Source: Escherichia phage BP9
Sequence record: PP488543.1
Direction: 5' to 3' (one strand)
Length of the DNA: 64,000 nt
The translations under genes and the position numbers were made by a program. The notes beneath the pieces are model-generated. The model saw only the letters and a program-made list of their open reading frames with translations. It ran no database searches and was not told the DNA's origin. Of this stretch, positions 4,494 to 21,152 are shown piece by piece (the stretch's first letter is position 1; each line of letters begins with the position of its first letter).

Positions 4494-4526
4494 ATCTAGA
4501 TGGTATCGGAGTGTCCTGGAGAGGTT

Positions 4527-5411
4527 ATGCCAAGCAATATAGTTGATGAAAAAGACCTGTACAAGCCTCAAGAGGTTAAATCTCCAAAGGCTGAAAAGGC
4601 AGAGCAGCAAACTGAAAGCGATGTAAAGTACACTATGTTTGTCAGCGGTCTTAACTATGGTGGTCGCAATACGGAGATGAAGGGTAAAAACTTTACTAAC
4701 GATCTTGCCATTATCTTCGACCAGGTTGAGAACTATTCTTTCAAACATTCTGTTGATAAGACTGATTTTGCAGTGGAAGATAAATCTACCCTGTCAGACC
4801 ACGCTGTAATTAAAGATGGTGTATTTTCTTTTACTGGTAGGGTAAATACATCACCACATATAATCTATGAGCAAAACTACATTGACAGGAATACTGACTC
4901 TAAAAACCCTGCAGCATCTATGCGACCGGGCGCTGCACTGGAGGCTTTGACTGAAATCATTAATAAGCGCCAATTGGTTTCTTTGGTTACCGAGGAAAGA
5001 CTCCTTGAGAACTACATTATAACCAGCCTTTCTGCCAGCAAGTCTGTTGGCGAAGGTGCTGCAATGGTTTTTGATGTAGAGCTTACAGAGTTCCGCACAT
5101 TCTACTTGAACAAGGTTGTTAATGCAACTGTATACAGCAATCCTAAGAAAGTAGGCAAGACCCAACAAAAAGGTGCTGTCAACGACTGTAAGAATGGTAG
5201 TAACGTAGGTAACAAGAGGGACACAGGAGCATTCGCAGACACTGCATCCACAAACGCTGCAGAGGAGTGGCAGCCATACAAATCTATGATGTGGACAGAT
5301 GAAAACGGTGTTACCCAATCGGCTGCGGATTGGTATTATCAGGAATATGGAAGACCTTCTACCATAGTCCCATCTGAGCAGGGAAACTACAACAAAGTTA
5401 ACGGGAAATAA
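4527..5411 (+). CDS. tail/baseplate assembly protein of unknown function (post-tape-measure gene)
   Basis: ATG at 4527 has a GGAGAGG Shine-Dalgarno; the track start at 4500 overlaps the promoter -10 and is unlikely. Occupies the position of LysM/DNA-circulation-type proteins in contractile-tail operons; no motif recognised. Confidence 0.35.
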   Translation: MPSNIVDEKDLYKPQEVKSPKAEKAEQQTESDVKYTMFVSGLNYGGRNTEMKGKNFTNDLAIIFDQVENYSFKHSVDKTDFAVEDKSTLSDHAVIKDGVFSFTGRVNTSPHIIYEQNYIDRNTDSKNPAASMRPGAALEALTEIINKRQLVSLVTEERLLENYIITSLSASKSVGEGAAMVFDVELTEFRTFYLNKVVNATVYSNPKKVGKTQQKGAVNDCKNGSNVGNKRDTGAFADTASTNAAEEWQPYKSMMWTDENGVTQSAADWYYQEYGRPSTIVPSEQGNYNKVNGK

Positions 5412-5423
5412 GGGGAGCGTATA

Positions 5424-5804
5424 ATGGAGCTTAAAGATTGGTGCATAATCACCTTTGTGTGGGACATTGACGGCTTTCCTGATCAAACCATGCGTGTTGT
5501 TTTAGACAACGAAACGTATGAAATGCGTATGCAATGGAATGAGAGGGATGAGTCTTGGTGGTTATCTCTTGGTCCAGTAGGTGACAGCCCTTTAGTAACC
5601 AGAAAAGTAACAGCTTGTCAAGATATCTTAGACGGACTGCATTATAGAGACGATTTACCGAAAGGTAGATTGATGGCACTGTCGTTTAAAGATGATCAAT
5701 ATTGGGGCAGGGTTGGAAGATACAACCTTGGAGCAAGATCCGAGCTACAACTTGTATACGGCACTCCAGTTGATCTTTACAAGGAACAGCAAGGGTTAGA
5801 ATAA
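5424..5804 (+). CDS. small baseplate/tail protein of unknown function (126 aa)
   Basis: Translationally coupled (stop/start overlap at 5804) to the gpD-like hub gene. Confidence 0.3.
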   Translation: MELKDWCIITFVWDIDGFPDQTMRVVLDNETYEMRMQWNERDESWWLSLGPVGDSPLVTRKVTACQDILDGLHYRDDLPKGRLMALSFKDDQYWGRVGRYNLGARSELQLVYGTPVDLYKEQQGLE

Positions 5805-6808
5805 TGGCAGAGTACAGACGTAGAACATGGCGATTATTGTTTGGTCGTCCTGTAGAACATGGCGGTAAATCAAAAACCAATATCCCAAAATCTGTTGAAA
5901 AGAAAGGGGAGAGTGATTCCGGAGTTTATGAAGTTAGCTCAGACACTGGTGCTGCCAATATAGAGTTTGACATACAAAAGGACAATACCAAAGAGCCAAA
6001 CAAAGGTTATGTGACAGTTTACAACCTGTCCGACGATACAGTTAACTATCTGGATATGCATCAGGCTGATGCTCTTGCAGTTATGTTTGAAGCTGGCTAT
6101 GATAATGAGAACCAGTTGATATTCTCCGGAACTGTGGAGTTTGTTGAAGACAGATGGGAAGGTCCTACCAGAAAAACTAAGTTCATCTTTGGGGATGGCA
6201 CTGAGAACATCATTAAGTGCCAAAGCACAAGATCTTATCAGAAAGGCACACCTCTGAACTCTGTGCTTAATGACTTACTGAAGGATATGAACTTGCCAAA
6301 AGGTAGGGTTGTTGGTTTTGGAAACCAGACTTTGCAATACTCTATGGCTTTCTCTGGAAACACTGCAGAGAACCTCCGCAGGTTTGCAAGGCTGACCAAC
6401 TCAACATTTAGCGTTCAGGATGGGGCTTTGTATTGGACCAAGGTTGGAAAAAGGTTCAAAGACTCTGTGTTTGAAATAAGCGCAGAGTCTGGGATGCACG
6501 GATCTCCTACCCCTAAAAACCCAGAACCTGCTAAAAAACGAAAAGCTAAAGCTGCTGCCAAAGGTGGTTCGACATCTAAAAAGAAAAAGAAAAACCCGAG
6601 AGAGGATGTTGGCCTTACTGTAACCACATGCCTTAACGGAGCTATCCTCCCAGAGTCCACTATTTATCTTAAAAGCAAGCAATATACAGGCTTCTATAAG
6701 GTGATCACGGTGCATCATAAGGGCACCATAGAAGGTGGTGATTACACTACAGAGCTTGGCCTTGGGGAAACAGTGGGTGGAGTTGTTGACAAAACTGAGG
6801 AGGTATAA
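5804..6808 (+). CDS. baseplate hub protein, Phage_GPD (P2 gpD / Mu gp44 / gp27-like) family
   Basis: C-terminal signature similar to the P2 gpD terminus (GFYKVITVHHKGTIEGGDYTTELGLGE versus GFKPEID..WIITRVTH..GYQTTLELE); size 334 aa; located upstream of the spike and wedge genes. Confidence 0.55.
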   Translation: MAEYRRRTWRLLFGRPVEHGGKSKTNIPKSVEKKGESDSGVYEVSSDTGAANIEFDIQKDNTKEPNKGYVTVYNLSDDTVNYLDMHQADALAVMFEAGYDNENQLIFSGTVEFVEDRWEGPTRKTKFIFGDGTENIIKCQSTRSYQKGTPLNSVLNDLLKDMNLPKGRVVGFGNQTLQYSMAFSGNTAENLRRFARLTNSTFSVQDGALYWTKVGKRFKDSVFEISAESGMHGSPTPKNPEPAKKRKAKAAAKGGSTSKKKKKNPREDVGLTVTTCLNGAILPESTIYLKSKQYTGFYKVITVHHKGTIEGGDYTTELGLGETVGGVVDKTEEV

Positions 6809-7485
6809 TGGCAATAAATAGGAAAGATGCTGCTGTAAGATCCTTCATAGAAAAAATAATGAGGGACTACCACACCAGTATCAGGGCCAGAGTTGTCAGT
6901 GTAGACTACAGTATCCCTTCTGCATCTGTGCAGCCAATAGCTGAAACCACGTTTGATGACGGAGATGTGGAGAGATACCCCCTTATCTATGACGTTCCAA
7001 TTCAGGTGATGTCTGCAAACAGCGGAAAGGCAAGGTTAACACTTCCTATTAAGGCCGGAGATGTTGTAGGATTGCAGTTTTCAGAGAGGAATGAAAACAA
7101 TAACGACGATCAACAAACTCACGGCCTGTTTCCAGGGTGGGCAATCACCTCCGTTCATTCAGACTCAAACGCTTTACAGATCGATCCTGATAACGTAGAG
7201 TTATGGAATGATAGGGTTTATTTTAAACTGACACCTTCTGGCGATTTTGAGCTTCAGACACCGGGTGGAACATTACGGTGCGACAGCAGCGGGGAGTTTT
7301 CTTTCACTAACGGTGCTGCCAATTTGCGAGCTGCTGTGGATGGAAATATCAGAATGAATGGTGCCACAATAGACCCATCTGGTAGAATTATAACTGCTGC
7401 TGGCGTGGATTTGGATTCATTCTATGCAGAATATAAAGGTCATACCCACTCTTGCCCTGATGGCGAGACAAGTGGACCGCACTAA
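6808..7485 (+). CDS. baseplate central spike protein (P2 gpV / Mu gp45-like, OB-fold plus metal-binding apex)
   Basis: C-terminal GHTHSCPDGETSGPH matches the gpV terminus HTHKHPGDSGGTTGSPL; N-terminal region resembles the gpV OB-fold; start overlaps the hub stop. Confidence 0.7.
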   Translation: MAINRKDAAVRSFIEKIMRDYHTSIRARVVSVDYSIPSASVQPIAETTFDDGDVERYPLIYDVPIQVMSANSGKARLTLPIKAGDVVGLQFSERNENNNDDQQTHGLFPGWAITSVHSDSNALQIDPDNVELWNDRVYFKLTPSGDFELQTPGGTLRCDSSGEFSFTNGAANLRAAVDGNIRMNGATIDPSGRIITAAGVDLDSFYAEYKGHTHSCPDGETSGPH

Positions 7486-8893: not shown

Positions 8894-11491
8894 ATGCGTA
8901 TTCAACATAACATTGATAACGTATTTCAGATGATTGAGGGGCACAGGAAGTGCCTCGATAACAACACAGGCATTACCAATCTCCCTACGCAGAACAAGCT
9001 GGTAAACCCTGATGGTCTTATAGCTGCAGGGTGGGCAGGTAATAAGATAAATAATGATTGGGCAATGCATGAGTCCCAAGCTGTGTTGATTCTGGGATAC
9101 ATTGAAGCATACAGGGCATCGAAAAGCGATTTCTATCTGGATAGGGCAAAAGATGCTTGGGAAGCTTACAATAGTCATCTTCTGGGTGCATATGCAGTAG
9201 AAAGTAAAATGCAAAGATTGTCCCACTACCCTCTATCTACAGATGGGGTTCCATCACATGGTGGGTTTAAAGATGTGGTGGTGTCTTTTACCAATGGTAG
9301 AGGAAAAATCCCAGCTGGATCTCCGACATGGGGAGAATACCTGGACAAGGCATTCCAAGCGTATAACGGTGTGTTAGGAAGAAACACGGTAGACTCCGAT
9401 GTTTACGGTGGCACAGATGCTAACCCAGATTGGACAACATCCGGATTAAGTTGGTGGGTTGAGTGGTATATAGCATGGGATGGTAACCGCTATTGGGCTA
9501 ACGGTAGCATAGCCGACAGTGGGCATACGTCTGTAGAGTTCGGCACAATCCAATTACAAGATAAGGGTGTTACAGGAAGCCACAAGGTAACCTATTGTGT
9601 AAGATTACCTCAAGAGCAGGGTGGATCGGTGATACCTGCAGGATCCCCTGTAATTGTGAATCCTATAAACGTGGTTGCAGACAATCAAGCCCCAGAGTTG
9701 GACGGGGAAGAAATGTGGTGTGACGCTTGTTATCAACTCTACACCTTGACAGGTGAGGAAAAGTATTACACCGCGTTTAAACAGTCTTACAACAAGTTGC
9801 TTAATTTCAGTGATATAAACGCCTACGACAAACTGTTTAGAAAGACCACGTTGATTAAGGCACCATTTACAGATGGTGCTTGTCTTGTTGCAGGAACAGT
9901 TCCTGTCATGATCAGGGATAGTGACGGGTATATCAATTTTAGAATGAACGCACGCCAGCCTTGCGAAATAATTCAAAAAGGGACTACATACAAAATAGGC
10001 AGAGATGCTGAAATTGTTATGAATTTCGGAGGAGAAGGGGTTCTGTTCCAGCCACATTTCATCCTTAATGATGGCAACAATAACAAAAAACAGTACAGGA
10101 TAGGTGTTCCTTTTGGAGGTGCAGAGGTAACAGAAATAGTTGCCAAGGTTACTGATTTCGTAGAGGTAGTTGGTAAAGACGGTAATCCGTACCTCTTACC
10201 TAAAGAGGAAAACATTGCCGTGAGCGGTGGTGCCAGTGTTAGTATGCAGTACGATACCGACATTTACAACCACTCTGACAACTTCACCCGTTGTAATATA
10301 GCAAGGGGCAAAGTAACTTTCAATTTTGGAAGAGAGATTTCTTTAAACTCAGTAACTTATCGATCAGATGATGAGATGGTAAGGGTCAAATTTCTTGACA
10401 AAGACAGGTGGTTATGGTATGCTGATCTATATGCCACTAATGGACAATGGATAACAGAAACTCTTACTCTAGGAGATTTCAAACTAGATCCGACACAACC
10501 TCATCACACCGAAGAAGAGATTAAACCTTTCTTTGCTAATCCTAAGGGGCTCACCTCTGTAGATTTCAGCCTAAGCGACAGGCAGATAGGTAATGGCTTG
10601 TTTGACCTATATTGTGTCAACACACTGCCGCAATTTTATATTGCAGATAGAGATGCTTATCTAATCTGGTTTAGCGTATGGATGGCAAGCAAGACAGAAT
10701 CAACCGCTAGGGTTGGCGATTGCTATGTCAGAAACTACAAGCAAGGCGCATACAGGCACACACCGGGTGTGTTCCCTGCCGGAAAGGTGATAGATAAGGA
10801 AAACTATCTCTTAGAGGAAAAGCCAAATTGGCCCTACCCTGGCATGCAATATCCAGCAGTCTACTGCATGGGTGCAGAAAACATAGATCGCCATAGATTG
10901 TCAAATACAATAGGCTTTCTGTATGACGCTCAAGTCTGGTATAATAATACATTTAAGACAGAGGGTCCAGTTGCCTCGCGTTATGTATGGCAGAGAGGTA
11001 ATGAAGGGCTGACTGGTTGGTGGGAGATGGTAGATAACTCTAAACTCCAGTCAAGATCTTTTGTTGCTGCGTGCCGCACAATATATGAGCTCAAGAAACA
11101 TAAAGAACCTGTTGATGAAAGACTATTCCTGTTCTGCCAGAAATGGGCATGGTTCCTCAACAGATTCCAGTCATCTCATTCAGGAAATCTGCCCACAGAC
11201 TTTAACACCTCTGGGGGATATTCTTATCAAGACAGAGGAGACAGGATGTGGGTGGTAGGTGAATGGCTTGCAGGTTGCTGCTGGCTAGGTCTGTGCGGGT
11301 ATTCAGAGACAATACCTCAAATAGATATTGTTGTGGAAGCCTGTGTGAAGCTACTGCAAAAGCACCACTTCATTAATGGGGATAATATTTTAAACGGCTG
11401 CTGGGCAGTTTCTGATCCGGTTGGCTATCACTCTGGCGAAATCCTTCGCGGTCTGGGCCTTTATGCTCAATACCGTGGATTGTACCTTTAA
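8894..11491 (+). CDS. putative virion-associated polysaccharide-degrading protein (alpha/alpha-toroid-like ends with a beta-rich insert), 865 aa
   Basis: Trp/Tyr-rich N- and C-terminal segments reminiscent of (alpha/alpha)6-barrel glycosidases/lyases; located among fibre genes. Weak, composition-based inference. Confidence 0.3.
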   Translation: MRIQHNIDNVFQMIEGHRKCLDNNTGITNLPTQNKLVNPDGLIAAGWAGNKINNDWAMHESQAVLILGYIEAYRASKSDFYLDRAKDAWEAYNSHLLGAYAVESKMQRLSHYPLSTDGVPSHGGFKDVVVSFTNGRGKIPAGSPTWGEYLDKAFQAYNGVLGRNTVDSDVYGGTDANPDWTTSGLSWWVEWYIAWDGNRYWANGSIADSGHTSVEFGTIQLQDKGVTGSHKVTYCVRLPQEQGGSVIPAGSPVIVNPINVVADNQAPELDGEEMWCDACYQLYTLTGEEKYYTAFKQSYNKLLNFSDINAYDKLFRKTTLIKAPFTDGACLVAGTVPVMIRDSDGYINFRMNARQPCEIIQKGTTYKIGRDAEIVMNFGGEGVLFQPHFILNDGNNNKKQYRIGVPFGGAEVTEIVAKVTDFVEVVGKDGNPYLLPKEENIAVSGGASVSMQYDTDIYNHSDNFTRCNIARGKVTFNFGREISLNSVTYRSDDEMVRVKFLDKDRWLWYADLYATNGQWITETLTLGDFKLDPTQPHHTEEEIKPFFANPKGLTSVDFSLSDRQIGNGLFDLYCVNTLPQFYIADRDAYLIWFSVWMASKTESTARVGDCYVRNYKQGAYRHTPGVFPAGKVIDKENYLLEEKPNWPYPGMQYPAVYCMGAENIDRHRLSNTIGFLYDAQVWYNNTFKTEGPVASRYVWQRGNEGLTGWWEMVDNSKLQSRSFVAACRTIYELKKHKEPVDERLFLFCQKWAWFLNRFQSSHSGNLPTDFNTSGGYSYQDRGDRMWVVGEWLAGCCWLGLCGYSETIPQIDIVVEACVKLLQKHHFINGDNILNGCWAVSDPVGYHSGEILRGLGLYAQYRGLYL

Positions 11492-11527
11492 CATAGGGGG
11501 GCTGTTTGCCCCCTTTCAGGAGAAAGA

Positions 11528-14500
11528 ATGGCTGATATTAAAGTTGTCAGAATTGAATCTCTTCCTGCCACTACCGCAGTGACAGAGGATGATTACCTGG
11601 TTGTTCAACAACCAGACCTGACCCGTCGTGTAAAAATTGGCGATGTTGTCCATGTTGATGGGACTGTTTCTCATGTAATCTCCTTTAAGGAAGGTGGTAA
11701 GTTAAACGGCCCAATGGATTTTGCCTACTTCGAAGAGGAAGACCTCTACCTGCGTTGGAAAGGCGAATTTCCGCACACTGTTCCTGCACTATCTTCACCG
11801 TACTCCGATGGCGGGATTACTGACGCTGCATGGATGGTATATACTGACCCGTCCTTAAGGGAGGAGCTGGAATCTACCATTGGCGCATCCATGATCATGA
11901 CAGCCGAAGGGCAGTCTGTCCAGGATGTAATGGATGTTACTGTTCAGACAGCTAACGATGCCAAAGCACTTGCACAGCGTGTAGATTTTGGTACAGTGCA
12001 CACTGTAGGCGATGTTATTCACCTTGATAACTTTGTTGGCCCTGCAGTTATTGAAGAGGGAAGAACTACCAACTACCCTTCTGTAGCAGCTGGTGAAAAA
12101 TTTCTGAACGGTGTGGTATCTCGTCGTGATACTACAACTGTTGATGGTATTTTCCGTGGCGCTACCTCCGGAGCAATGTATACCATTGCAGTAACCAACG
12201 GTGTAGCAACAACAAAAAGAATAGCACTTCGTGATGAATTTAAACGCCTGGAGGCAAACAACCAAACAAGAACAATTATCCGTGCTGGAGATGATTTAAA
12301 CACGGCAGGGTACTTGCAGCTTGATGCAACAGGCCGTTGGGGTATGTGGAACCAACAAACAGCTTCTTGGCAGCCTCTTGCTATAGAGCAGGGCGGCACA
12401 GGGGCTAGAGATGCCGCTGGAATCCGTACCAATATCGGTGCTTTCTATAAGCAACGTGCAGCCCTTGAGCCAAATTTCAATATCAATAACTTGACTGGTA
12501 ATCAGGATGGTATATACTACCAGCCGATGACTGCTTATGCAACTGAGGCAAATGGTTATCCTGCAGGTTCTGGTGCTGGTCACTTGATTGTTTGGCAGAA
12601 CAATGCTAACGGTGGTACAGGTTGTCGTCAGGAATACTATCCATTCTCCAACGTAGATGTTTGGTATTTGAGAACCTATCAGGCCAACACAAATCAGTGG
12701 ACTGCATGGCAGCCGATGGTCAGACCTCGTAACGATGATACCTTTAGAGCGCACATCGGTCTCGGGTCTAGAAACTCCCCTACCTTCGGGCACCTTTACC
12801 TGTCTCAAAGCTCTGCGGATGTTAAGTCAGCATCAGGTATTGTTAACGGAGACAAATACAACGCTGACGGTGTCCTTGAGCATGGGTATAGGATCTACTC
12901 TGAGGTAAGGAACGACAATAAGGCTTGGTTGACAATCCACCTGCACAAAGGTGCAAAAGGATCTGAAACTCATAGATATTTAGGCTTCCGTGAGGATGGG
13001 GTCTTAGATTGTCCTAAATATATGCAGGTTGGTGATCTGAACGGTCAGATGGCAAACTGGGGACTTGGAGAATGGATCCGCAGTTCAGGAGCAGAAAGAG
13101 GTTTCTGGGGATCTAAGAAAGCCGCCAAGATGGTCATCTGGGATGGCGGTATGGACGAGCAAGGTGAAGGAACGCTTGAGTGGGGTGTTTATAACAACCG
13201 GAAAGCCAAATGGGAACCACTACCGATAGCTTGTGGTGGTACCAGTGCCAGGACTGTAGGGGATGCTCAAGCACAATTCAGAATCCCTCTGGCAGCAGGT
13301 ACTAGACCATATGTAAACCTGCCTAGAACTGCAGCTATGCAGGACGGTAAGTATTATCCTATTATCGTCAGAACTGACCCCAACTTTGCAGCAACTATCG
13401 GGACAGATTTAACCATTGTCACCAGATCTTCTTCTGGCGGCGACCCAATGAACTGTGCTACACTACAGTGTCACTACAGAATTGGTGGCTGGACAGACAG
13501 AGGTGATTCTTTCCAAGGGGTTATTAATTTCTACCAAAACGAGAAAGCAATCCTCGGATGTGTATCTCCAACCAGAGGTAAGCAGGAGTATGTTGCATTC
13601 TATGTAGAGGCACGTGCATTCCCTGTTACAGTATATGCTGGCGCTACTGTAATAGAAGTGTCAACCAGGGAGGTTGATTGGCAGGTAGGCAACGTGGAAG
13701 GTAACCAAGATGGTGTCAAGTTCTGTGCTCCTCTGGCATCTGCAGATTTGAGTCTTGCAATCAAAGGTGATGATGTAACAAACACTAGACCTCTGGTTGA
13801 GTTCAAAGGGACATCAGGTTTCTACACTGGTGGTGGAACTATGTGGCACTACCTGGGAACTCCTGAACGCTATGCAGTGATGAGCAAAATGAACATGCCT
13901 AAAGTCGAGCTTTGGGCAGACGGTATTGACTACATTTGTCCTGGTAGTCAGACCACTAGAAAAGCACTGTTCTCTAACGCAGGGTTCCAAGCTGCATCGG
14001 AAGGAACAGAGGATCTGATCAACAACACCTTTACCTCTAAATGTGGTAATGGTGCAAGACTACAAGGCCAGGCAGAGTTCAGATCTACTCCAGAGGCTGG
14101 TCAAGTTATTGTTCGTGATGTTGTAGGCACAGCTCATAGATTCTATAACTTCAACAAAGATGGCACTTTCTCAGCCCCTGGTGGTTTTGTATGTCATACT
14201 GGTGCAGACTGGAACAACCAGTTTGGGCCTAACAACCCTTCTAAAATAATGGCAGGCAATGTCAACGGACCTGAAGGATCGATGGTTGTTGGTGGGTTGT
14301 CTGTGGCGTTTTCTGGAAACTATGCCTTCCAAATGGCTGGTCGCCTTGATCAGTTATACACCAGATCTATCGAGGGTGGTAACCATAGGGCATGGAACAA
14401 AGTTATTCAGCACCGTGGTCAAGGTCTGGGGACAGAAGACCTTAATGACTACGATGGTAGCCGTGAAGGTTTCTATCACCAGGGTTCAAACGCTGACGCA

Positions 14501-15340
14501 CTTGTAATAGCTCGTCACTACCCTGCTCCGTACGCTGGTACGCTGCTTGTTTACAAAAACACAGCCAACAGACCGCAAGGTTGTGTGCAGGAATACATTA
14601 CCTATTTTGGTGACAGATATACTCGTGCTGGTAACTACGTTGGCGATGTCTTTACTTGGGAAGAATGGAGACACGATGCTGGTAAGGGCATTCAGTTAAG
14701 ACCTAATTACACTTTCGGTGAAAACAGTACTCAGCTGGAAATTCATGTTGGTGCTAATGGTCTTCCATCCAACGCCGATAACTTACCTACCAACAATGCT
14801 ATACTCCATTATTGGGGTAACGGCAGTGCAGGGACTCGTCCAAACGTGTTAGAGTTTAAGGTTCTTGACGAGTCTCAATCGGCTTATGTATGGCATTGCG
14901 GTACCTTGCCGGATAAATCAAGATATCTTTCTGTAAACGGTGCTGTGAATTGCACATCTGTCAATCAGAGTTCTGACAGAGATCTGAAAGATAACATAGC
15001 TGTTATTCCTGATGCGTTAGAAGCTATCCGGAAGATGAGGGGTTATACTTACACTCTTAAAGAGAACGGTATGCCTTATGCAGGTGTTATAGCACAAGAA
15101 GTTCTTGAAGCGCTGCCGGAAGCAGTTAGCTCTTTCGTGCAAAGAAAGGAAATCCCAAACCCTGATCAGGATGGAACTCCTTTAATAACAGAGGAAAGAT
15201 TCTACAGCGTGGATTACGCAGCTGTAACAGGCTTGCTTGTCCAGGTTTGCAGGGAACAGGATGATAAAATAACCGCCCTTGAGGAGCAGGTTAAAAAATT
15301 GACAGAGGTTGTTACTGGGTTGCAAGAGAAACTGAAGTAA
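11528..15340 (+). CDS. long tail fibre with C-terminal peptidase S74 intramolecular chaperone domain (1270 aa)
   Basis: C-terminus SDRDLKDNIAVIPDALEAIRKMRGYTYTLKENGMPYAGVIAQEVLEALPEAV...coiled coil is the hallmark autoproteolytic chaperone domain of endosialidases and T5 L-shaped fibres; N-terminal anchor shared with 8224..8892. Confidence 0.8.
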   Translation: MADIKVVRIESLPATTAVTEDDYLVVQQPDLTRRVKIGDVVHVDGTVSHVISFKEGGKLNGPMDFAYFEEEDLYLRWKGEFPHTVPALSSPYSDGGITDAAWMVYTDPSLREELESTIGASMIMTAEGQSVQDVMDVTVQTANDAKALAQRVDFGTVHTVGDVIHLDNFVGPAVIEEGRTTNYPSVAAGEKFLNGVVSRRDTTTVDGIFRGATSGAMYTIAVTNGVATTKRIALRDEFKRLEANNQTRTIIRAGDDLNTAGYLQLDATGRWGMWNQQTASWQPLAIEQGGTGARDAAGIRTNIGAFYKQRAALEPNFNINNLTGNQDGIYYQPMTAYATEANGYPAGSGAGHLIVWQNNANGGTGCRQEYYPFSNVDVWYLRTYQANTNQWTAWQPMVRPRNDDTFRAHIGLGSRNSPTFGHLYLSQSSADVKSASGIVNGDKYNADGVLEHGYRIYSEVRNDNKAWLTIHLHKGAKGSETHRYLGFREDGVLDCPKYMQVGDLNGQMANWGLGEWIRSSGAERGFWGSKKAAKMVIWDGGMDEQGEGTLEWGVYNNRKAKWEPLPIACGGTSARTVGDAQAQFRIPLAAGTRPYVNLPRTAAMQDGKYYPIIVRTDPNFAATIGTDLTIVTRSSSGGDPMNCATLQCHYRIGGWTDRGDSFQGVINFYQNEKAILGCVSPTRGKQEYVAFYVEARAFPVTVYAGATVIEVSTREVDWQVGNVEGNQDGVKFCAPLASADLSLAIKGDDVTNTRPLVEFKGTSGFYTGGGTMWHYLGTPERYAVMSKMNMPKVELWADGIDYICPGSQTTRKALFSNAGFQAASEGTEDLINNTFTSKCGNGARLQGQAEFRSTPEAGQVIVRDVVGTAHRFYNFNKDGTFSAPGGFVCHTGADWNNQFGPNNPSKIMAGNVNGPEGSMVVGGLSVAFSGNYAFQMAGRLDQLYTRSIEGGNHRAWNKVIQHRGQGLGTEDLNDYDGSREGFYHQGSNADALVIARHYPAPYAGTLLVYKNTANRPQGCVQEYITYFGDRYTRAGNYVGDVFTWEEWRHDAGKGIQLRPNYTFGENSTQLEIHVGANGLPSNADNLPTNNAILHYWGNGSAGTRPNVLEFKVLDESQSAYVWHCGTLPDKSRYLSVNGAVNCTSVNQSSDRDLKDNIAVIPDALEAIRKMRGYTYTLKENGMPYAGVIAQEVLEALPEAVSSFVQRKEIPNPDQDGTPLITEERFYSVDYAAVTGLLVQVCREQDDKITALEEQVKKLTEVVTGLQEKLK

Positions 15341-15439: not shown

Positions 15440-16030
15440 ATGTTTTTATGGGAAAGGCCTAGATACCTTCCAGATATTAGATTGGAGCTGCTGGCAGATA
15501 TTGTTACGTTTAAAAGTCCGTTTACAGGTAAAACGCAAAAAGTAACCTATGCCACACCTAACTGGAAAGGCACTTTGACGGTTTCCAATATCAGCGAGTC
15601 ACAGTTGCTAGAGCTTAAGAGCTTTGTTGATCAGGTGTATAAAGATGGAAACATCTTTCTTATTAAAACTTACGGTCACTCAGTAACAGCTAATGAGCCA
15701 ATCGCCCTCGGGCCTACTGGTAACGATGATTTTTTGAGGACGGTTGGGTGGGAGCCAAACAGAGACATAGCCAGAGCTGGGGATAAAATATCTGTCAATG
15801 ATGAATTGAAAGTGGTAACAGCTCCAGTGCGTAGCGATGGTGTTGGGTCTGCTGTTATAAGCATATCTCCAAGACTTAGAAAACCTATTGCCGCAGGGGA
15901 CACTATGAAGATAATAACTCAATCCCCGAAGGGTAGGTTTCATATCAGAGATATTTATAAAATTAAGCAAAAAGTCGATGCTATGCAAAAAGGGGATAAT
16001 ATAGTTATCAACTTCTTTGAGGATTTCTAA
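15440..16030 (+). CDS. putative distal tail / minor tail protein (lambda M or GTA Dit-like position)
   Basis: First gene of a four-gene unit ending in the lambda J-like gene; assignment by synteny. Confidence 0.3.
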   Translation: MFLWERPRYLPDIRLELLADIVTFKSPFTGKTQKVTYATPNWKGTLTVSNISESQLLELKSFVDQVYKDGNIFLIKTYGHSVTANEPIALGPTGNDDFLRTVGWEPNRDIARAGDKISVNDELKVVTAPVRSDGVGSAVISISPRLRKPIAAGDTMKIITQSPKGRFHIRDIYKIKQKVDAMQKGDNIVINFFEDF

Positions 16031-16135
16031 GATGATCAGAGCGCCATTAGATAATTTATTTCTTGAAAGCTGGAGCTTGATGGTGTTGAGATCTTAATTG
16101 CTGCAAAGCTGGAGCTACCGACAGGAACTGTCAGG

Positions 16136-16582
16136 GTGTGCTCAGGCACTGGTGTTGTAGTAATTGAGGGGCAACATTTTATAGGGATAGGTGGGTCAGC
16201 AACATTAACCGCTGTGTCTGAGAAAGATGCCACCAACTTCGGATCTGTGGTAGCGACATTGAACGGGTTTGATCCTAAGTATGTGGGTGATCTGCTGAAG
16301 ACGGAGTATTCTGGTTGTCGTGCCACGTTGTACATTACCGCTATGGAGAATGGTCTGCCTGTTACAACTAATGGCTTGTTTGACGGCCTTATAACAGATA
16401 TGGCTATTCAGACGGGTGAGAATAGCGCTTTGTCCATATCCATCTCTTCCATCTTCAACAGTTGGTTAAGAGGTTTTCCTTATCGGTACACGGAGGAAAG
16501 CCACAGCTCAAGAAACGATAACGACAGATTTTTTAAATATGTGGATCAGGTGGCGAGCCGCCCGATCATTTGGGAGGTTTAA
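16136..16582 (+). CDS. putative minor tail protein (lambda L / hub-associated position)
   Basis: GTG start at 16136 in the track; the frame is open upstream to about 16055 with a possible TTG start near 16076. Synteny only. Confidence 0.3.
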   Translation: MCSGTGVVVIEGQHFIGIGGSATLTAVSEKDATNFGSVVATLNGFDPKYVGDLLKTEYSGCRATLYITAMENGLPVTTNGLFDGLITDMAIQTGENSALSISISSIFNSWLRGFPYRYTEESHSSRNDNDRFFKYVDQVASRPIIWEV

Positions 16583-17007
16583 TGAGCACACATCCTCGTC
16601 TAGTGGACTGGCAAGAAAGATTGTGGAAAGTGTTTGACGAAGAGGCCACCATACCTTTTGAATGGGGATTCCACGATTGTTGCACCTTTGCAGCTAAGTG
16701 TGTTGATGCCCAATACGGAACAGATTTTCTTTCTAACTTCGAAGGAACGTATAAAACAGAGTTGGAAAGCAAAAGATGGTGCATGCTCCGTTTCAAAACC
16801 ACACACCTGCCTACTATTTTTGATCTCTTTATGACTCGGCTGGATACTCCTAAACAGGTTCAGCGTGGAGATATTGTCATTTTCGAAGGTCTGAACGGCC
16901 TCACCGCTGGTGTGTTCTGGAACAACCAGATTTGGGCGAAAGGTGATAAAGGGGTCTTTATGTTCGATATGAAAGATTCTATCGTTGTTGATGTCTGGAG
17001 GTATTAA
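16570..17007 (+). CDS. NlpC/P60-like cysteine peptidase-fold tail protein (lambda K / GTA phage-NlpC family)
   Basis: FEWGFHDCCTFAAKCVDAQYG contains the His-Asp-Cys arrangement typical of phage tail NlpC/P60 proteins; directly precedes and overlaps the J-like gene. Confidence 0.5.
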   Translation: MGGLMSTHPRLVDWQERLWKVFDEEATIPFEWGFHDCCTFAAKCVDAQYGTDFLSNFEGTYKTELESKRWCMLRFKTTHLPTIFDLFMTRLDTPKQVQRGDIVIFEGLNGLTAGVFWNNQIWAKGDKGVFMFDMKDSIVVDVWRY

Positions 17008-20000
17008 TGCCAATTGCAATGATTGATAACATCGTTGCTTCTGCAAGATCTTCAAGTTATGACTGGAACGCATCCAAGGCAGCTCTGGCTGACAGCCTGA
17101 ACACTGTTACCACCAGAACTCTGGATAAGATTTTTGAGGGTAACAAATCTTACAGAAGTCAGCAAGATAGACAAAAGCTTCTCAGATCTTCTGCTGCACC
17201 CTGCTCTGTAGTGTATGGAAAGACACGCACATCTGGATTGCTTGCGTTTTTGGAGCAGGATAGAGACAAAACCCTCCATTGTGCTATTGTTCTTGCCAAT
17301 CACCCTCTGGAAGGTATAGAAGATATACTTATCGATGGTAATCCTATTTCCTCGTATGGAGATTTGGTATCGTGGGAGTTACATAACGACAGAAAAACGG
17401 CTGATCCTTTCATGGGGACACACTGCCCATCGTGGTCACCAGACATGATAGGTAGAGGGATCAGTTGGCTACGTGCCAGCTTCAAGTTCGACCCTAACAA
17501 GTTTCCTTTTGGGTTGCCAAACGTTACACTCGTTAAGGTTGGTAAAAAATGCTATGATCCTCGTATCAGTAAAGAGGTGTACACCAATAACGCATCCTTG
17601 GTGATCCTGGACTATTTAAGAACGTACCTTAAATGTCCTGACGAAACCATCAACTGGGAGTCCTTTAAGGAGGCTGCCAACATATGCGACGAGGCGGTAA
17701 AAAACGCTGACGGAACCAGTGAGCGACGTTACACCATTAACGGTGAGTTTGACATGGATGAGGCCCCAGCAAGTATTATGGCAGAAATGCTGAAAGCTTG
17801 CGGTGCAGACCTTAGTTATGTTGCTGGTAAGTATGGTTTGCTGGTTGGTGCATACTATGGTCCGGCAACAATGACATTGAGTGAGGACTGTGTCTGTGGT
17901 GAGGTTAAGATCTATCCGGAAGCCTCATTTGACAAAAGATCTAACACAATAACTGGCAGATTCACTAGTCCGACCAAAGGGTATTCTGAAACAGATTTCC
18001 CATCAGTGTTTGTCCCAGAGTGGATAGAGAAGGATGGAGAAAGAAAGATAATCGATATAGACTATCGCTTTGTTACCAGTCCTTATCAAGCTCAACGTGT
18101 TTCTGCAATCTTCTTAAGACGTGCTAGAGCTGGCAGGATTATTGAAGTCACCTGCAATATGCGAGGTTTTAAATTTAAGCCTGGCCGTTACGTTACAATG
18201 AATCTCCCAAGTATTGGTATAGTAGGCCAAGAAATGAGGGTTCTTGAATGGGAGTTCACCAAAAAGGGTGGTGTCAAGGTAAAACTTCGTCAAGATGCTA
18301 AAGAGTGGAATGATGCCACAGGGCAACTTCCGGATTCTGGTGATGTAGATATTCCGATATCTCCATCTGGTGTAGCTCAACCGCAAAACTTCAGATACTC
18401 CGTCCTCCAAGCTGGGGAAATAACTCACGGTGTTCTGGCTTGGGACAACGTTGGGACTTACGCTCAAAATATTGTGCAGGTAAGAAAGAACGGAGAGATT
18501 GTTTGGACAGCACAGACAGTTGAGCAGTTTGTCCGAGTAGAAGGCTTGACCAAAGGGTCATACACAGCAACCGTGGTTGCAACATCTTATAAAGGTGGTG
18601 TATCTCCAGAAGCGTACTGCGAGTTTAACATTCAGGCACCTGAAGCTCCTGTTTCTGTAGAGGTTAAGCAGGGATACTTTGCTATCACCTTGATTCCACA
18701 CAGCAGGGATTTAGCAAGTGTAAGCACCCAGTATGACTTTTGGACATCTGGTATGACAAGGTTGCCCGACACCAGCGATGCAACCGTTACTTCAAACGCC
18801 ACCCGTATGGGTGTTGGTTCAACTTGGACATCCGAAGGTCTGCAGAACGATAAGGTTTATTATTGGTATATTCGAACCACAAACGCTTTTGGTAGCTCTC
18901 AGTTTGTAGAGTGTGCTGCACGCTGCTATACCTCCATTGAGGATTTGATGCCTCAGATAGATGCTGAATTCAAAAAGACAGAAACTTATAAAGAGTTGAT
19001 GAGCACTTTGGATTCCTCTATTGAAGAGGTTGAAAATCGTGTCACAGAACTTAACAGGTACATGGATGGTAGAGTTGACGAGGCTTTTGACCACATGGAA
19101 GGTGAGTTCTCTAGAGTAGACAAGCTGTATGCTCAGTTGGGAGATAGGGTTGGAATATTCATCCAAGAAACCCACGACAACTTCCAGGACGTTAATGGAA
19201 CGCTTACCACTCTAGATCAGAAACTGGTAGCCACTCAGAACAAGTTTGCAGATGATCTTTCTAAAGAAAGTGGCAAGCTTGCTTCTCTAATCCAGACCAC
19301 TAACAAAGCTACAACCGATCTGTTAAATCAGAAAACTGAAGCTTTGGACGAGAAGATTGTTTCAACCAGGGGTGAGTTGGAAGATGCTTTAGCGCAGGAA
19401 AGCTCTGAGCTGAACTCCCTGATTGTATCAACCAATAAAACGACTACAGATCTCCTTAATCGGAAAACCGAGGCTTTAGACAATAAGCTGACGGCAACGA
19501 AAGGTGAGTTGACCAACAATCTGCAGAATGAGAGTGCTAAACTATCGTCCTTGATTGAGTCAACCAACAAATCCACCACTGATCTTCTTAATAAGAAAAC
19601 AGAGGCGTTGGATGAAAAACTGGTTGCTGCACAGGGCGAGTTGACTGAGCAGATCGGAGATGTTGAAAAAGGCTATCTGGCTGGTGATAAGAGCCTAGAG
19701 GGCAAGTTGAATACTCAAAGATCTGAGTTGGATGCGAGCATTCTGAGCACTAACCAGGCCACTGTGGACTTGCTGAACAGAACTTCTGAGACTCTTGACC
19801 AGAAGATTAGCCAGACCAACGCCACAGTGTCCAAAAACTACACCACGCTTGATGGTAAGATAAACACCGCCAAGTCTGATCTTAATACGTTGATTTCTAC
19901 CACCAACAAGGCCACAACTGACCTGTTGAATCAGAAAACGGCAGCTTTGACTGAGCAGTTAACCACTGCTAAAGGGCAGATTACAACCAACACCAATAAT

Positions 20001-21152
20001 ATTACTGGGTTGGACAATAAGCTGACTCAGACGAAGAAAGACTTGTCTGCGAATATTTCTGAAACTAATAACGCCACTGTTGATCTGATTAACGGCACAG
20101 CGTCAGCTATTCGTCAAGAACTTGCTGTTGCTAAGCAGGAGATCATTGATGGTGTTGGCGATGTGTCCGAGATCAGGGCTGCAGTAGCTACAACAGCTAA
20201 GGCTGTGACCGACTTAGAGGGTAAAGTAAATGCTCAGTGGGGTACAAAAATACAGGTAGACTCCGCAGGGAATAAATATGTTGCAGGTATCCAGTTGGGG
20301 ATGGAAGGGTCTGGGGGCCAAGTTCAATCCTACTTCATGGTTAGTGCAAACAATTTTGCGGTATACAATCCTGGCAATGGAACAGCAACCCTTGCTTTCG
20401 CAATCAAGAACAACCAAGCGTTCTTGAAAGACGCTTTTATAGAGAATGGCACGATCTCCTCTGCCAAGATCGCACAAGAAATTTCGTCAAACAACTACGA
20501 TGGCAACGGGTACCATAAATACGGTTGGTATATTAACAAGAACGGGCACGCCCAATTTATGGATGTGTGGGTGAAAGGCAACATCAACGCCAGTTCTGGT
20601 AACTTCACAGGGGCAGTTAACGCCACTAGTGGTACCTTCCGTGGGGATGTTTATGCCAATAATGGTAGCTTTAGAGGCACCATAGATGCAACCGGAGGTA
20701 CCTTCCGTGGTCGTGTAGAAGCTTCTGTTATCCGTGCCAACCAGTTCGAAGGTGCAATTGTTGCACACAGGACTTACGGGGATTGTGCTCCAGTATATAA
20801 CTCTCAGCAAAGGGTTTGCCGTTGGAGGTGGAGATACGTAGATAACGTTTCAGGTCAGGGTAAGAACGTAACATTCTTCTTTAAACTGAACGGTACTCTT
20901 GCCAGCTCCCAACTGAATGCATGGATAGCTGGTCATCAGATCCTTGCTGGCAAGAAGTATTTTAACGACAACAACGGCATGTGTGCGGTAGGGATAACAG
21001 GTCTGGGTGAACAAACTATAGACATTGTTATCGAGATTTACACACCGTGGTCAACGTCGAGCGTGACAGGTGTCACAATCTCCTGTCCCACTGTGATAGT
21101 AAGTCGTTCAAACTCTAGCTTCCAGGGACCTTGGAACGAGTCTCACGACTAA
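17007..21152 (+). CDS. lambda J-like host specificity / central tail fibre protein (1381 aa) with internal coiled-coil repeat insert
   Basis: Segment ILDYLRTYLKCPDETINWESFKEAANICDEAV...RYTINGEFDMDEAPASIMAEMLKACGADL parallels the lambda J Phage-tail_3 core (AWCLWDMLTHPRYGMG...DKWALYVIGQYCDQSV...RITCNAYL). Further matches: APEAPVSVEVKQGYFAITLIPH versus lambda [23 protein letters not shown], and KIQVDSAGNKYVAGIQLGMEGS versus lambda [21 protein letters not shown]. Confidence 0.8.
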   Translation: MPIAMIDNIVASARSSSYDWNASKAALADSLNTVTTRTLDKIFEGNKSYRSQQDRQKLLRSSAAPCSVVYGKTRTSGLLAFLEQDRDKTLHCAIVLANHPLEGIEDILIDGNPISSYGDLVSWELHNDRKTADPFMGTHCPSWSPDMIGRGISWLRASFKFDPNKFPFGLPNVTLVKVGKKCYDPRISKEVYTNNASLVILDYLRTYLKCPDETINWESFKEAANICDEAVKNADGTSERRYTINGEFDMDEAPASIMAEMLKACGADLSYVAGKYGLLVGAYYGPATMTLSEDCVCGEVKIYPEASFDKRSNTITGRFTSPTKGYSETDFPSVFVPEWIEKDGERKIIDIDYRFVTSPYQAQRVSAIFLRRARAGRIIEVTCNMRGFKFKPGRYVTMNLPSIGIVGQEMRVLEWEFTKKGGVKVKLRQDAKEWNDATGQLPDSGDVDIPISPSGVAQPQNFRYSVLQAGEITHGVLAWDNVGTYAQNIVQVRKNGEIVWTAQTVEQFVRVEGLTKGSYTATVVATSYKGGVSPEAYCEFNIQAPEAPVSVEVKQGYFAITLIPHSRDLASVSTQYDFWTSGMTRLPDTSDATVTSNATRMGVGSTWTSEGLQNDKVYYWYIRTTNAFGSSQFVECAARCYTSIEDLMPQIDAEFKKTETYKELMSTLDSSIEEVENRVTELNRYMDGRVDEAFDHMEGEFSRVDKLYAQLGDRVGIFIQETHDNFQDVNGTLTTLDQKLVATQNKFADDLSKESGKLASLIQTTNKATTDLLNQKTEALDEKIVSTRGELEDALAQESSELNSLIVSTNKTTTDLLNRKTEALDNKLTATKGELTNNLQNESAKLSSLIESTNKSTTDLLNKKTEALDEKLVAAQGELTEQIGDVEKGYLAGDKSLEGKLNTQRSELDASILSTNQATVDLLNRTSETLDQKISQTNATVSKNYTTLDGKINTAKSDLNTLISTTNKATTDLLNQKTAALTEQLTTAKGQITTNTNNITGLDNKLTQTKKDLSANISETNNATVDLINGTASAIRQELAVAKQEIIDGVGDVSEIRAAVATTAKAVTDLEGKVNAQWGTKIQVDSAGNKYVAGIQLGMEGSGGQVQSYFMVSANNFAVYNPGNGTATLAFAIKNNQAFLKDAFIENGTISSAKIAQEISSNNYDGNGYHKYGWYINKNGHAQFMDVWVKGNINASSGNFTGAVNATSGTFRGDVYANNGSFRGTIDATGGTFRGRVEASVIRANQFEGAIVAHRTYGDCAPVYNSQQRVCRWRWRYVDNVSGQGKNVTFFFKLNGTLASSQLNAWIAGHQILAGKKYFNDNNGMCAVGITGLGEQTIDIVIEIYTPWSTSSVTGVTISCPTVIVSRSNSSFQGPWNESHD
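19240..20180 (+). repeat. tandem ~40-45-aa coiled-coil repeats (about 6-7 units) inside the J-like gene
   Basis: Recurring unit S(L/I)I.STNK(A/T)TTDLLN.KTEALD.KL....GEL seen repeatedly in the translation, with corresponding DNA periodicity. Confidence 0.7.

Follow-up and report, generated by a model that had tools for sequence, protein, structure and literature searches.

A modular, hendecad-based helical shaft in the J-like tail fibre protein of Escherichia phage BP9

In phage lambda, the tail fibre protein gpJ contains a short helical element, AHS (aa 809-861, 53 aa), which connects FNIII-2 with the beta-prism and is a bundle of three helices (PMC11101478; PDB 8iyk/8xck). In F-type pyocins and siphophages, the central fibre proteins have a tail-tip domain that follows a long coiled coil with an 11-residue periodicity (PMC12874032; PDB 25vf). 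In RBPseg multimer models, the Vequintavirinae fibre of this type is elongated and has 'large coiled-coil domains', and the coiled coils of J-like needles are 'of varying lengths' (PMC12143355). Further, mass spectrometry has found the fibre protein gp37 (1279 aa) of the Vequintavirus rV5 in virions (PMC3606486). Here, we describe the orthologue of rV5 gp37 in Escherichia phage BP9 (sequence record PP488543.1), a J-like tail fibre protein of 1381 amino acids (aa) encoded by the open reading frame (ORF) 17007-21152, and in particular its long alpha-helical shaft, which is built of tandem units. Positions are those of the analysed 64,000-nucleotide (nt) stretch of DNA (the window), features lie on the plus strand unless stated otherwise, and residue numbers are those of the BP9 protein unless another is named.

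The BP9 protein has the domain order and gene setting of the lambda J-like family, with J-homologous N-terminal hub domains, an Ig/FN3 pair followed by PF09327, and a location in a tail-tip gene module. It matches the PHROGs profiles phrog_31 ('central tail fiber J', E = 5.6e-160) and, over aa 44-502, phrog_5616 (E = 1.2e-73), and siphophage 'central tail fiber J' proteins share 42-50% amino acid identity with it starting at aa 48. The alignment with PDB sequences pairs two blocks with lambda J, aa 497-678 with residues 666-844 and aa 1065-1218 with residues 850-991, and some 385 residues of the BP9 protein match a handful in lambda J. The first of these blocks holds two Ig/FN3-like domains (18483-18962), Ig_J (aa 493-545; Pfam PF24421, E = 3e-5, under its cut-off) and Ig_J_second (aa 547-652; PF24489, E = 1.3e-30). 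The second belongs to the tail-tip beta domain Phage_Tail_Tip (PF09327, aa 1059-1199, 20181-20603; E = 7.6e-39), which also aligns with the F2-pyocin fibre.

Between the two blocks lies the alpha-helical shaft (aa 644-1050, 18936-20156), a homologue of the lambda AHS that is about eight-fold longer. The two elements agree in protein family and in location, between FNIII-2 and the beta-prism or tail-tip domain, but the AHS is a non-repetitive element of 53 aa, whereas the BP9 shaft has about 400 aa and is modular and hendecad-based. Because the AHS occupies the same position, the BP9 shaft is an eight-fold expansion of an existing element and not a foreign insertion. A preliminary description of this locus had proposed an insertion that lambda J does not have. 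Lambda indeed has nothing comparable to the ~385 extra residues, but these expand the 53-aa AHS and are not an insertion. The same description placed the repeats between a Phage-tail_3 core and the C-terminal region; they are in fact bordered by Ig_J_second and PF09327, and Phage-tail_3 itself gave no Pfam match in the J-like protein at E <= 1.

The shaft carries six clear tandem units, at nt 19284-20234. Each has one copy of the motif [ST]N.xT[TV]DL[LI]N, with the six copies at aa 765, 809, 853, 915, 966 and 1020 and the unit starts at aa 760, 804, 848, 910, 961 and 1015. The base unit comprises 44 residues, which equal four hendecads, and later copies have additions of 7, 10 or 18 residues. 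Units 1 (aa 760-803, 19284-19415) and 2 (aa 804-847, 19416-19547) have 44 aa each, unit 3 (aa 848-909, 19548-19733) has 44 aa plus an 18-aa insertion (62 aa in all), and units 4 (aa 910-960, 19734-19886) and 5 (aa 961-1014, 19887-20048) have 51 and 54 aa. The last, unit 6 (aa 1015-1076, 20049-20234; ~62 aa), extends into the tail-tip domain. Upstream of unit 1, a degenerate partial unit 0 (aa 729-751, 19191-19259) was recovered by the DNA repeat search and, marginally, by a hidden Markov model (HMM) of the unit (independent E-value 0.11). Across the whole 64,000-nt window, the unit HMM found besides the six units this partial copy alone. The estimate of six to seven tandem units in the preliminary description is thus fair given this marginal seventh copy, and its consensus and account of the units agree with the motif and with the pairwise comparison of units. 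Its placement at 19240-20180 was close, with the array ending about 55 nt further downstream.

The relationship among the units is visible at the protein level, where Smith-Waterman z-scores against shuffled sequences range from 6.3 to 20 across all 15 unit pairs. In DNA, the units are pairwise 40-67% identical with a longest shared run of 14 identical bases, and a DNA repeat search recovered a 132-nt period. Tandem Repeats Finder (minimum score 30) reported no array; this is because the copies are so diverged in DNA, and it is the reason why the repeats are shown at the protein level. Searching PHROGs with the repeat region alone yielded nothing useful. Sub-threshold Pfam matches of the repeat region (Apolipoprotein, DUF7217, DUF1664 and Spectrin_7) were taken as matches of composition or periodicity and not as homology. 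Minus-strand ORFs are also present inside the repeat region (e.g. 19328-19579, 83 aa).

Structure prediction of the region gave an alpha-helical fold, in keeping with the coiled coil initially proposed. The AlphaFold2 (AF2) model, a monomer based on an alignment of 96 sequences, has helices at aa 644-656, 659-890 and 897-1050 and beta strands from aa 1058, with block-mean predicted local distance difference test (pLDDT) values of ~54-88. Between the two long helices, the only predicted break, at aa 891-896 (LAGDKS, 19677-19694), is marked by the secondary structure and by a dip in pLDDT. It lies inside the unit-3 insertion and may serve as a hinge or for attachment. The 18-aa insertion that bears the break (the GDVEKGYLAGDKSLEGKL region) is present in the 4-unit allele of related phages and absent from the 3-unit EdH4 allele.

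The periodicity of the shaft is that of hendecads. In the repeat region, the hydrophobic period peaks at 3.64-3.66 residues, and the hydrophobic power reaches 8.0 across the linker (aa 653-1058). Across aa 645-1076 it is 6.5, compared with a shuffle maximum of 1.1 +/- 0.2. The 11/3 phase is constant from aa ~744 to ~930, or 17 hendecads, and power at 3.5 residues is near zero there, so that aa 744-930 do not have the 3.5-residue period of a canonical heptad coiled coil. Within each 44-aa unit, position a is I or L throughout, position h is T/L/L/L in the four successive hendecads, and positions d/e are polar. The start of the shaft is heptad-like over its first ~45 residues from aa 645; taken together, aa 645-759 give a peak at 3.58. 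The observed period, together with 44 = 4 x 11, indicates hendecads and not heptads, which replaces the initial description of the units as heptad-rich. The Apolipoprotein family of Pfam is built on 11/22-residue repeats, and its weak sub-threshold match probably reflects the 11-residue period. An unbroken hendecad core pattern leads to the expectation of a nearly straight, parallel coiled coil.

We consider it probable that this part of the J-like protein forms a greatly lengthened, trimeric coiled-coil stalk that is nearly straight and has a length determined by the number of modules. Such a stalk would fix the distance from the N-terminal hub/FN3 part to the distal beta-prism and the C-terminal beta-sandwich. 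At 0.15 nm per residue it would measure ~58-60 nm with six units, ~43-45 nm with four and ~33 nm with three, possibly with a hinge at aa 891-896. The indels that distinguish alleles have sizes that preserve the coiled-coil register (88 = 8 x 11, 14 = 2 x 7, 18 = 7 + 11, and 11), and Vequintaviruses swap the shaft as an old, sharply bounded cassette while the remainder of the J-like gene is nearly identical. A parallel trimer is suggested by the homology to lambda gpJ and by published multimer models of the orthologue from the BASEL collection; the lengths and the function as a spacer are likewise inferred. Several points weigh against the proposed stalk. The AF2 shaft is a monomer model with a predicted TM-score (pTM) of 0.28, which cannot tell a parallel trimer from fold-back bundles, and the coil may be only marginally stable, given polar residues (T, N, K, R) at several of its core d/e positions. 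BP9 is also a contractile-tailed phage with its own hub and spike. Finally, divergence and exchange are strongest in the shaft and not in the distal tip, for which a passive spacer gives no obvious reason.

The number of units differs among related phages, as had been suggested. By the unit HMM, Vequintaviruses have three allele classes of six, four and three units, in register with the unit boundaries. All 119 examined proteins of 1279-1280 aa, including those of rV5-type and BASEL phages (RudolfGeigy type), have four units, and the EdH4 type (Vequintavirus murica, 1199 aa) has three. What separates the 6-unit from the 4-unit form is exactly 88 aa, or two units, together with a 14-aa indel. 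In the phage collection, the 6-unit cassette was found in 12 records at >=95% identity (14 cover >=80% of the cassette) and the 4-unit cassette in about 58 records at ~74% identity, with one intermediate at 80.5%. No homologue with a conserved non-repetitive domain at the position of the shaft was found. The J-like gene as a whole is 99.9% identical in DNA to that of Escherichia phage VB-EcoM-WM and 92-98% identical to those of many rV5-like Vequintavirus myoviruses. Eighteen GenBank records within MG065644-MG065690 carry the name 'Campylobacter phage' and give C. jejuni as host, but they are rV5-like genomes, 92-97% identical to the J-like gene, and these host labels look doubtful. In A142, A141 and A13b among them, the matched span is 4145 nt compared with the 4146-nt query.

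The origin of the additional units can be traced by comparing the alleles. Units 3-6 of BP9 are one-to-one orthologues of RudolfGeigy units 1-4 with 73-87% nucleotide identity. Unit 3 corresponds to RudolfGeigy unit 1 (75% nt and 84% aa identity), unit 4 is identical to RudolfGeigy unit 2 in amino acids and 80% identical in nucleotides over its first 38 codons, and unit 6 is orthologous to the final unit of both the 4- and the 3-unit alleles. Units 1 and 2 are without a counterpart in the 4-unit alleles, RudolfGeigy included, and are just 61-67% identical to unit 3, which indicates that the duplications are older than the split between the alleles.

The differences in unit number, with indels in register, might also be produced by an active contingency array, in which units are frequently gained and lost within phage populations through slippage or unequal crossing-over. 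The units are, however, not the near-identical copies of a slippage-prone tandem repeat locus: with 40-67% DNA identity and no shared run longer than 14 nt they escape Tandem Repeats Finder, and units 1 and 2 predate the split of the alleles. The classes of six, four and three units are discrete, and no 5- or 7-unit forms occur among the best matches in 5.8 billion proteins. Of the 15 members listed in the 6-unit cluster, 13 have exactly 1381 aa (one has 1139 aa). Such an array is very improbable and essentially excluded, and with it falls the earlier suggestion that copy number changes by ongoing recombination, since the short shared runs, the missing intermediate classes and the ancient divergence of the 6- and 4-unit alleles all speak against it.

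The shaft is a sharply bounded, exchangeable cassette. Its variable part (19107-20156) is the sole strongly divergent part of the J-like gene among Vequintaviruses: nucleotide identity between BP9 and RudolfGeigy is 55-78% within it and 95-99% at 17007-19100 and 20157-21152. Synonymous divergence (pS) is 0.76, and hence saturated, in the shaft versus 0.17 and 0.07 in the flanks, and nonsynonymous divergence (pN) is 0.137 versus 0.004 and 0.001, giving a pN/pS of ~0.18 for the shaft. Saturated pS and a low pN/pS between near-identical flanks indicate that the shaft diverged anciently under purifying selection and was recombined into a recently shared gene. Strong allelic variation has been reported in the BASEL paper for alignment positions 16,000-19,000 from the tape measure gene (PMC8594841); judging by the coordinates, these positions would correspond to the J-like gene. 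Across the surrounding 16 kb, which are otherwise 94-100% identical, there is just one further divergent island, with 63-86% nucleotide identity to RudolfGeigy; it lies at 13107-14906 in the distal half of the gp41-like lateral fibre gene (1270 aa).

Exchange of the shaft could also be explained by co-evolution with partner proteins, if the units or the break at aa 891-896 were a docking scaffold for other fibre proteins and the number of units set valency instead of reach. Vequintaviruses have numerous fibre proteins with a layout yet to be established (PMC8594841; PMC12143355), and according to He et al., side fibres may attach where the coiled coils of central fibres have short non-coiled breaks. 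A search for co-variation between the shaft allele and the gp41-like allele among phages nevertheless found none, and the two assort independently. EduardKellenberger, Murica and EI-SP-GF have a BP9-like gp41 allele yet 4- or 3-unit shafts, and A140-A142 have a 6-unit shaft with a gp41 segment that is 78.6% identical. The other fibre genes across 11-27 kb are 94-100% identical between the allele classes, and the 3-unit allele is without the break-bearing insertion. We therefore regard docking as quite improbable.

A different activity has been described for related shafts. In the F7 pyocin, a 163-aa coiled coil turns into a beta-prism when it contacts the receptor, through the 11-residue strand motif SxSxxMxxLxS in alternating orientation (He et al., 2026, PMC12874032), and of 24 central fibre proteins of siphophages, 21 are predicted to undergo the same conversion (PMC12874032). 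Residues 841-861 of the lambda AHS likewise turn to beta strands upon LamB binding (PMC11101478). A metastable switch of this kind in BP9 would convert the coiled coil to a beta-prism on receptor binding, shorten the fibre and pass energy or a signal to the hub, and extra units would add switchable length. The BP9 tail-tip domain with ~100 preceding residues aligns to the F2-pyocin fibre (E = 1.6e-17), at the same position in a homologous protein. The BP9 shaft shares the 11-residue periodicity, and its long coiled coil stands directly N-terminal of the beta-prism seed, with helix up to aa 1050 and strands from aa 1058. Matches to at least four of the five motif positions are modestly enriched (48 versus 36 +/- 5 in shuffles, p = 0.011), and three of the six perfect matches fall within the last 55 residues.

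However, perfect matches to all five positions are not enriched (6 versus 3.5 expected, p = 0.13). In units 1-3, just the first hendecad per unit fits the motif, and the other 'small-residue' positions are often D, E, K or Q, whereas Gln at small positions blocked switching in F7 (PMC12874032). AF2 gave helix only, although a monomer is a weak test of a trimeric prism. In addition, a contractile tail with its own spike needs no such energy source, and the relative phi92 functions without the entire J module. On this evidence a fold switch in BP9 is possible but unlikely, and we retain the length-setting stalk as the preferred explanation.

The J-like gene is part of a gene module of siphovirus type. 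This tip module (15440-21152) comprises genes for a Dit-like protein (phrog_1302), a phrog_2048 tail protein and DUF6950, together at 15440-17007, with the J-like gene last; the order matches 9g gp65-68. On either side, the module is flanked by a lateral fibre gene and a baseplate wedge gene of the same myovirus. The ordinary centre of a myovirus tail is encoded in the window as well, with genes for a Dit_like tube initiator at 4500-5411, a hub at 5804-6808 and the N-domain of a spike at 6808-7485, besides wedges and a gp25-like protein. The genome is that of an rV5-like myovirus with its own hub and spike, which does not fit the closed tip of a non-contractile tail that members of the lambda J-like family form. 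For this reason, the geometry of a 'central fibre' cannot be assumed, and we found no report in the literature that places a Vequintavirus J-like protein within the virion. The baseplate structure of phi92 was solved without any J-like protein. In a comparison with phi92 9765-14323, the four-gene tip module is absent between gp143 and gp145, where a small membrane-protein gene stands alone, and the structure paper is therefore uninformative on the position of the J-like protein.

Within the module, the phrog_2048 gene (16032-16582 in relatives), two genes before the J-like gene, differs from its relatives by a 1-nt deletion in an A-run at 16060-16070, where BP9 has GAAAG and VB-EcoM-WM and RudolfGeigy have GAAAAG. 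The deletion lies 33 nt into the gene; the frame from ATG-16032 ends after 21 codons and an ORF restarts at a GTG at 16136. This could be either a homopolymer sequencing error or a genuine frameshift. Annotations of the J-like gene also vary among its orthologues. The BASEL orthologue is annotated as 'lateral tail fiber protein with fibronectin type III domain', and some records (e.g. LN881735 slur12, KP869102) label the gene 'omp-alpha: outer membrane protein alpha precursor', which looks like an automatic transfer from coiled-coil composition rather than homology.

At the protein's distal end, a C-terminal beta-sandwich (aa 1249-1365, 20751-21101; low-confidence AF2 model, pLDDT 54) is a putative receptor-binding head. 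The best Foldseek match of this domain is the C-terminal fibre of lambda gpJ (8xck_F, E = 8e-5, TM-score 0.33); lectin-like sandwiches also match, and no Pfam match was obtained for aa 1249-1365. Receptor binding by the C-terminal region is weakly suggested by this model. The domain has 98-99% nucleotide identity among alleles.

With non-contractile tails, infection is triggered by the J-like fibres and in some systems also powered by them, and recent work on lambda and F-type pyocins has demonstrated mechanical activity of the helical shaft. A broader but distinctly unlikely proposal is that the BP9 shaft is a tunable functional element of a siphovirus tip module that Vequintaviruses acquired and re-used on a contractile tail, acting either as a metastable coil-to-beta-prism spring or trigger with a stroke set by the number of units, or as ancient, maintained length alleles matched to the thickness of the host surface layer. 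If true, either version would account for exchange and divergence being greatest in the shaft instead of the tip. Natural alleles of three, four and six modules (~33, 44 and 59 nm as estimated) occur in nearly identical and easily grown E. coli phages. This series is a convenient system for the study of shaft length versus metastability, and of the role of a siphovirus-type tip module on a myovirus.

Compared with lambda, in which J caps the tip of a non-contractile tail, BP9 has a contractile tail in which the hub and spike are separate proteins. Compared with the F-type pyocin fibre, the BP9 shaft is 2.5 times the length of the 163-aa switch region and stands on a contractile tail, the motif SxSxxMxxLxS is weak, and instead of Ala, T, S, D, E or K mostly occupy the small positions. 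The direct orthologues rV5 gp37 and BASEL bas52_0030 (RBPseg class TC5) have four copies of the same unit family and 95-99% nucleotide identity outside the shaft. The BP9 allele has in addition two 44-aa units and a 14-aa segment (1381 versus 1279 aa), and its shaft DNA is 55-78% identical to theirs. The closest proteins outside Vequintavirus are the J-like proteins of Queuovirinae (9g gp68 and WildeMaa bas23_0020), with 46-50% amino acid identity in tblastn pieces that cover 77-78% of the query. Both 9g and WildeMaa have the four-gene module in the order seen in BP9, and their linkers of 88-89 aa are heptad-like (period 3.51-3.55) with no recognisable unit. The P22-type tail needle gp26 (PDB 4lin) is likewise a trimeric coiled-coil fibre of a phage and gave the lone PDB sequence match of the shaft, a weak similarity to units 3-6 (E = 1.3e-3). 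It has no domain in common with the BP9 protein, and the similarity is one of repetitive coiled-coil composition, so that gp26 was rejected as a relative and is not a member of the family. Members of the gp26 family also differ in the length of their coiled coils.

The variation seen in BP9 fits within that of J-like proteins in general. We surveyed the linker between the same two flanking domains in 69 J-like representatives (representatives of 50%-identity clusters with both domains, together with the five phage proteins analysed here). Its length ranges continuously from 23 to 2467 aa, and the BP9 linker has 406 aa, with 14 longer ones. The hydrophobic period is 3.35-3.73 (or a boundary value) wherever measurable. 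A search of representatives with 18624-20726 also recovered five J-like proteins (P0243, P0245, P0249, P0254 and P0374; 2783-3530 aa in total) with 1800-2470 residues from FN3 to the tail-tip domain. A long shaft in a J-like protein is therefore not very unusual, and the shaft of BP9 is an ordinary example of fibre length variation, a longer allele within the known variation of the family. The large coiled coil of the rV5 orthologue and the allelic variation of the J-like gene are already published; new details from BP9 are the modules of hendecads and the shaft cassette with its sharp borders and ancient divergence.

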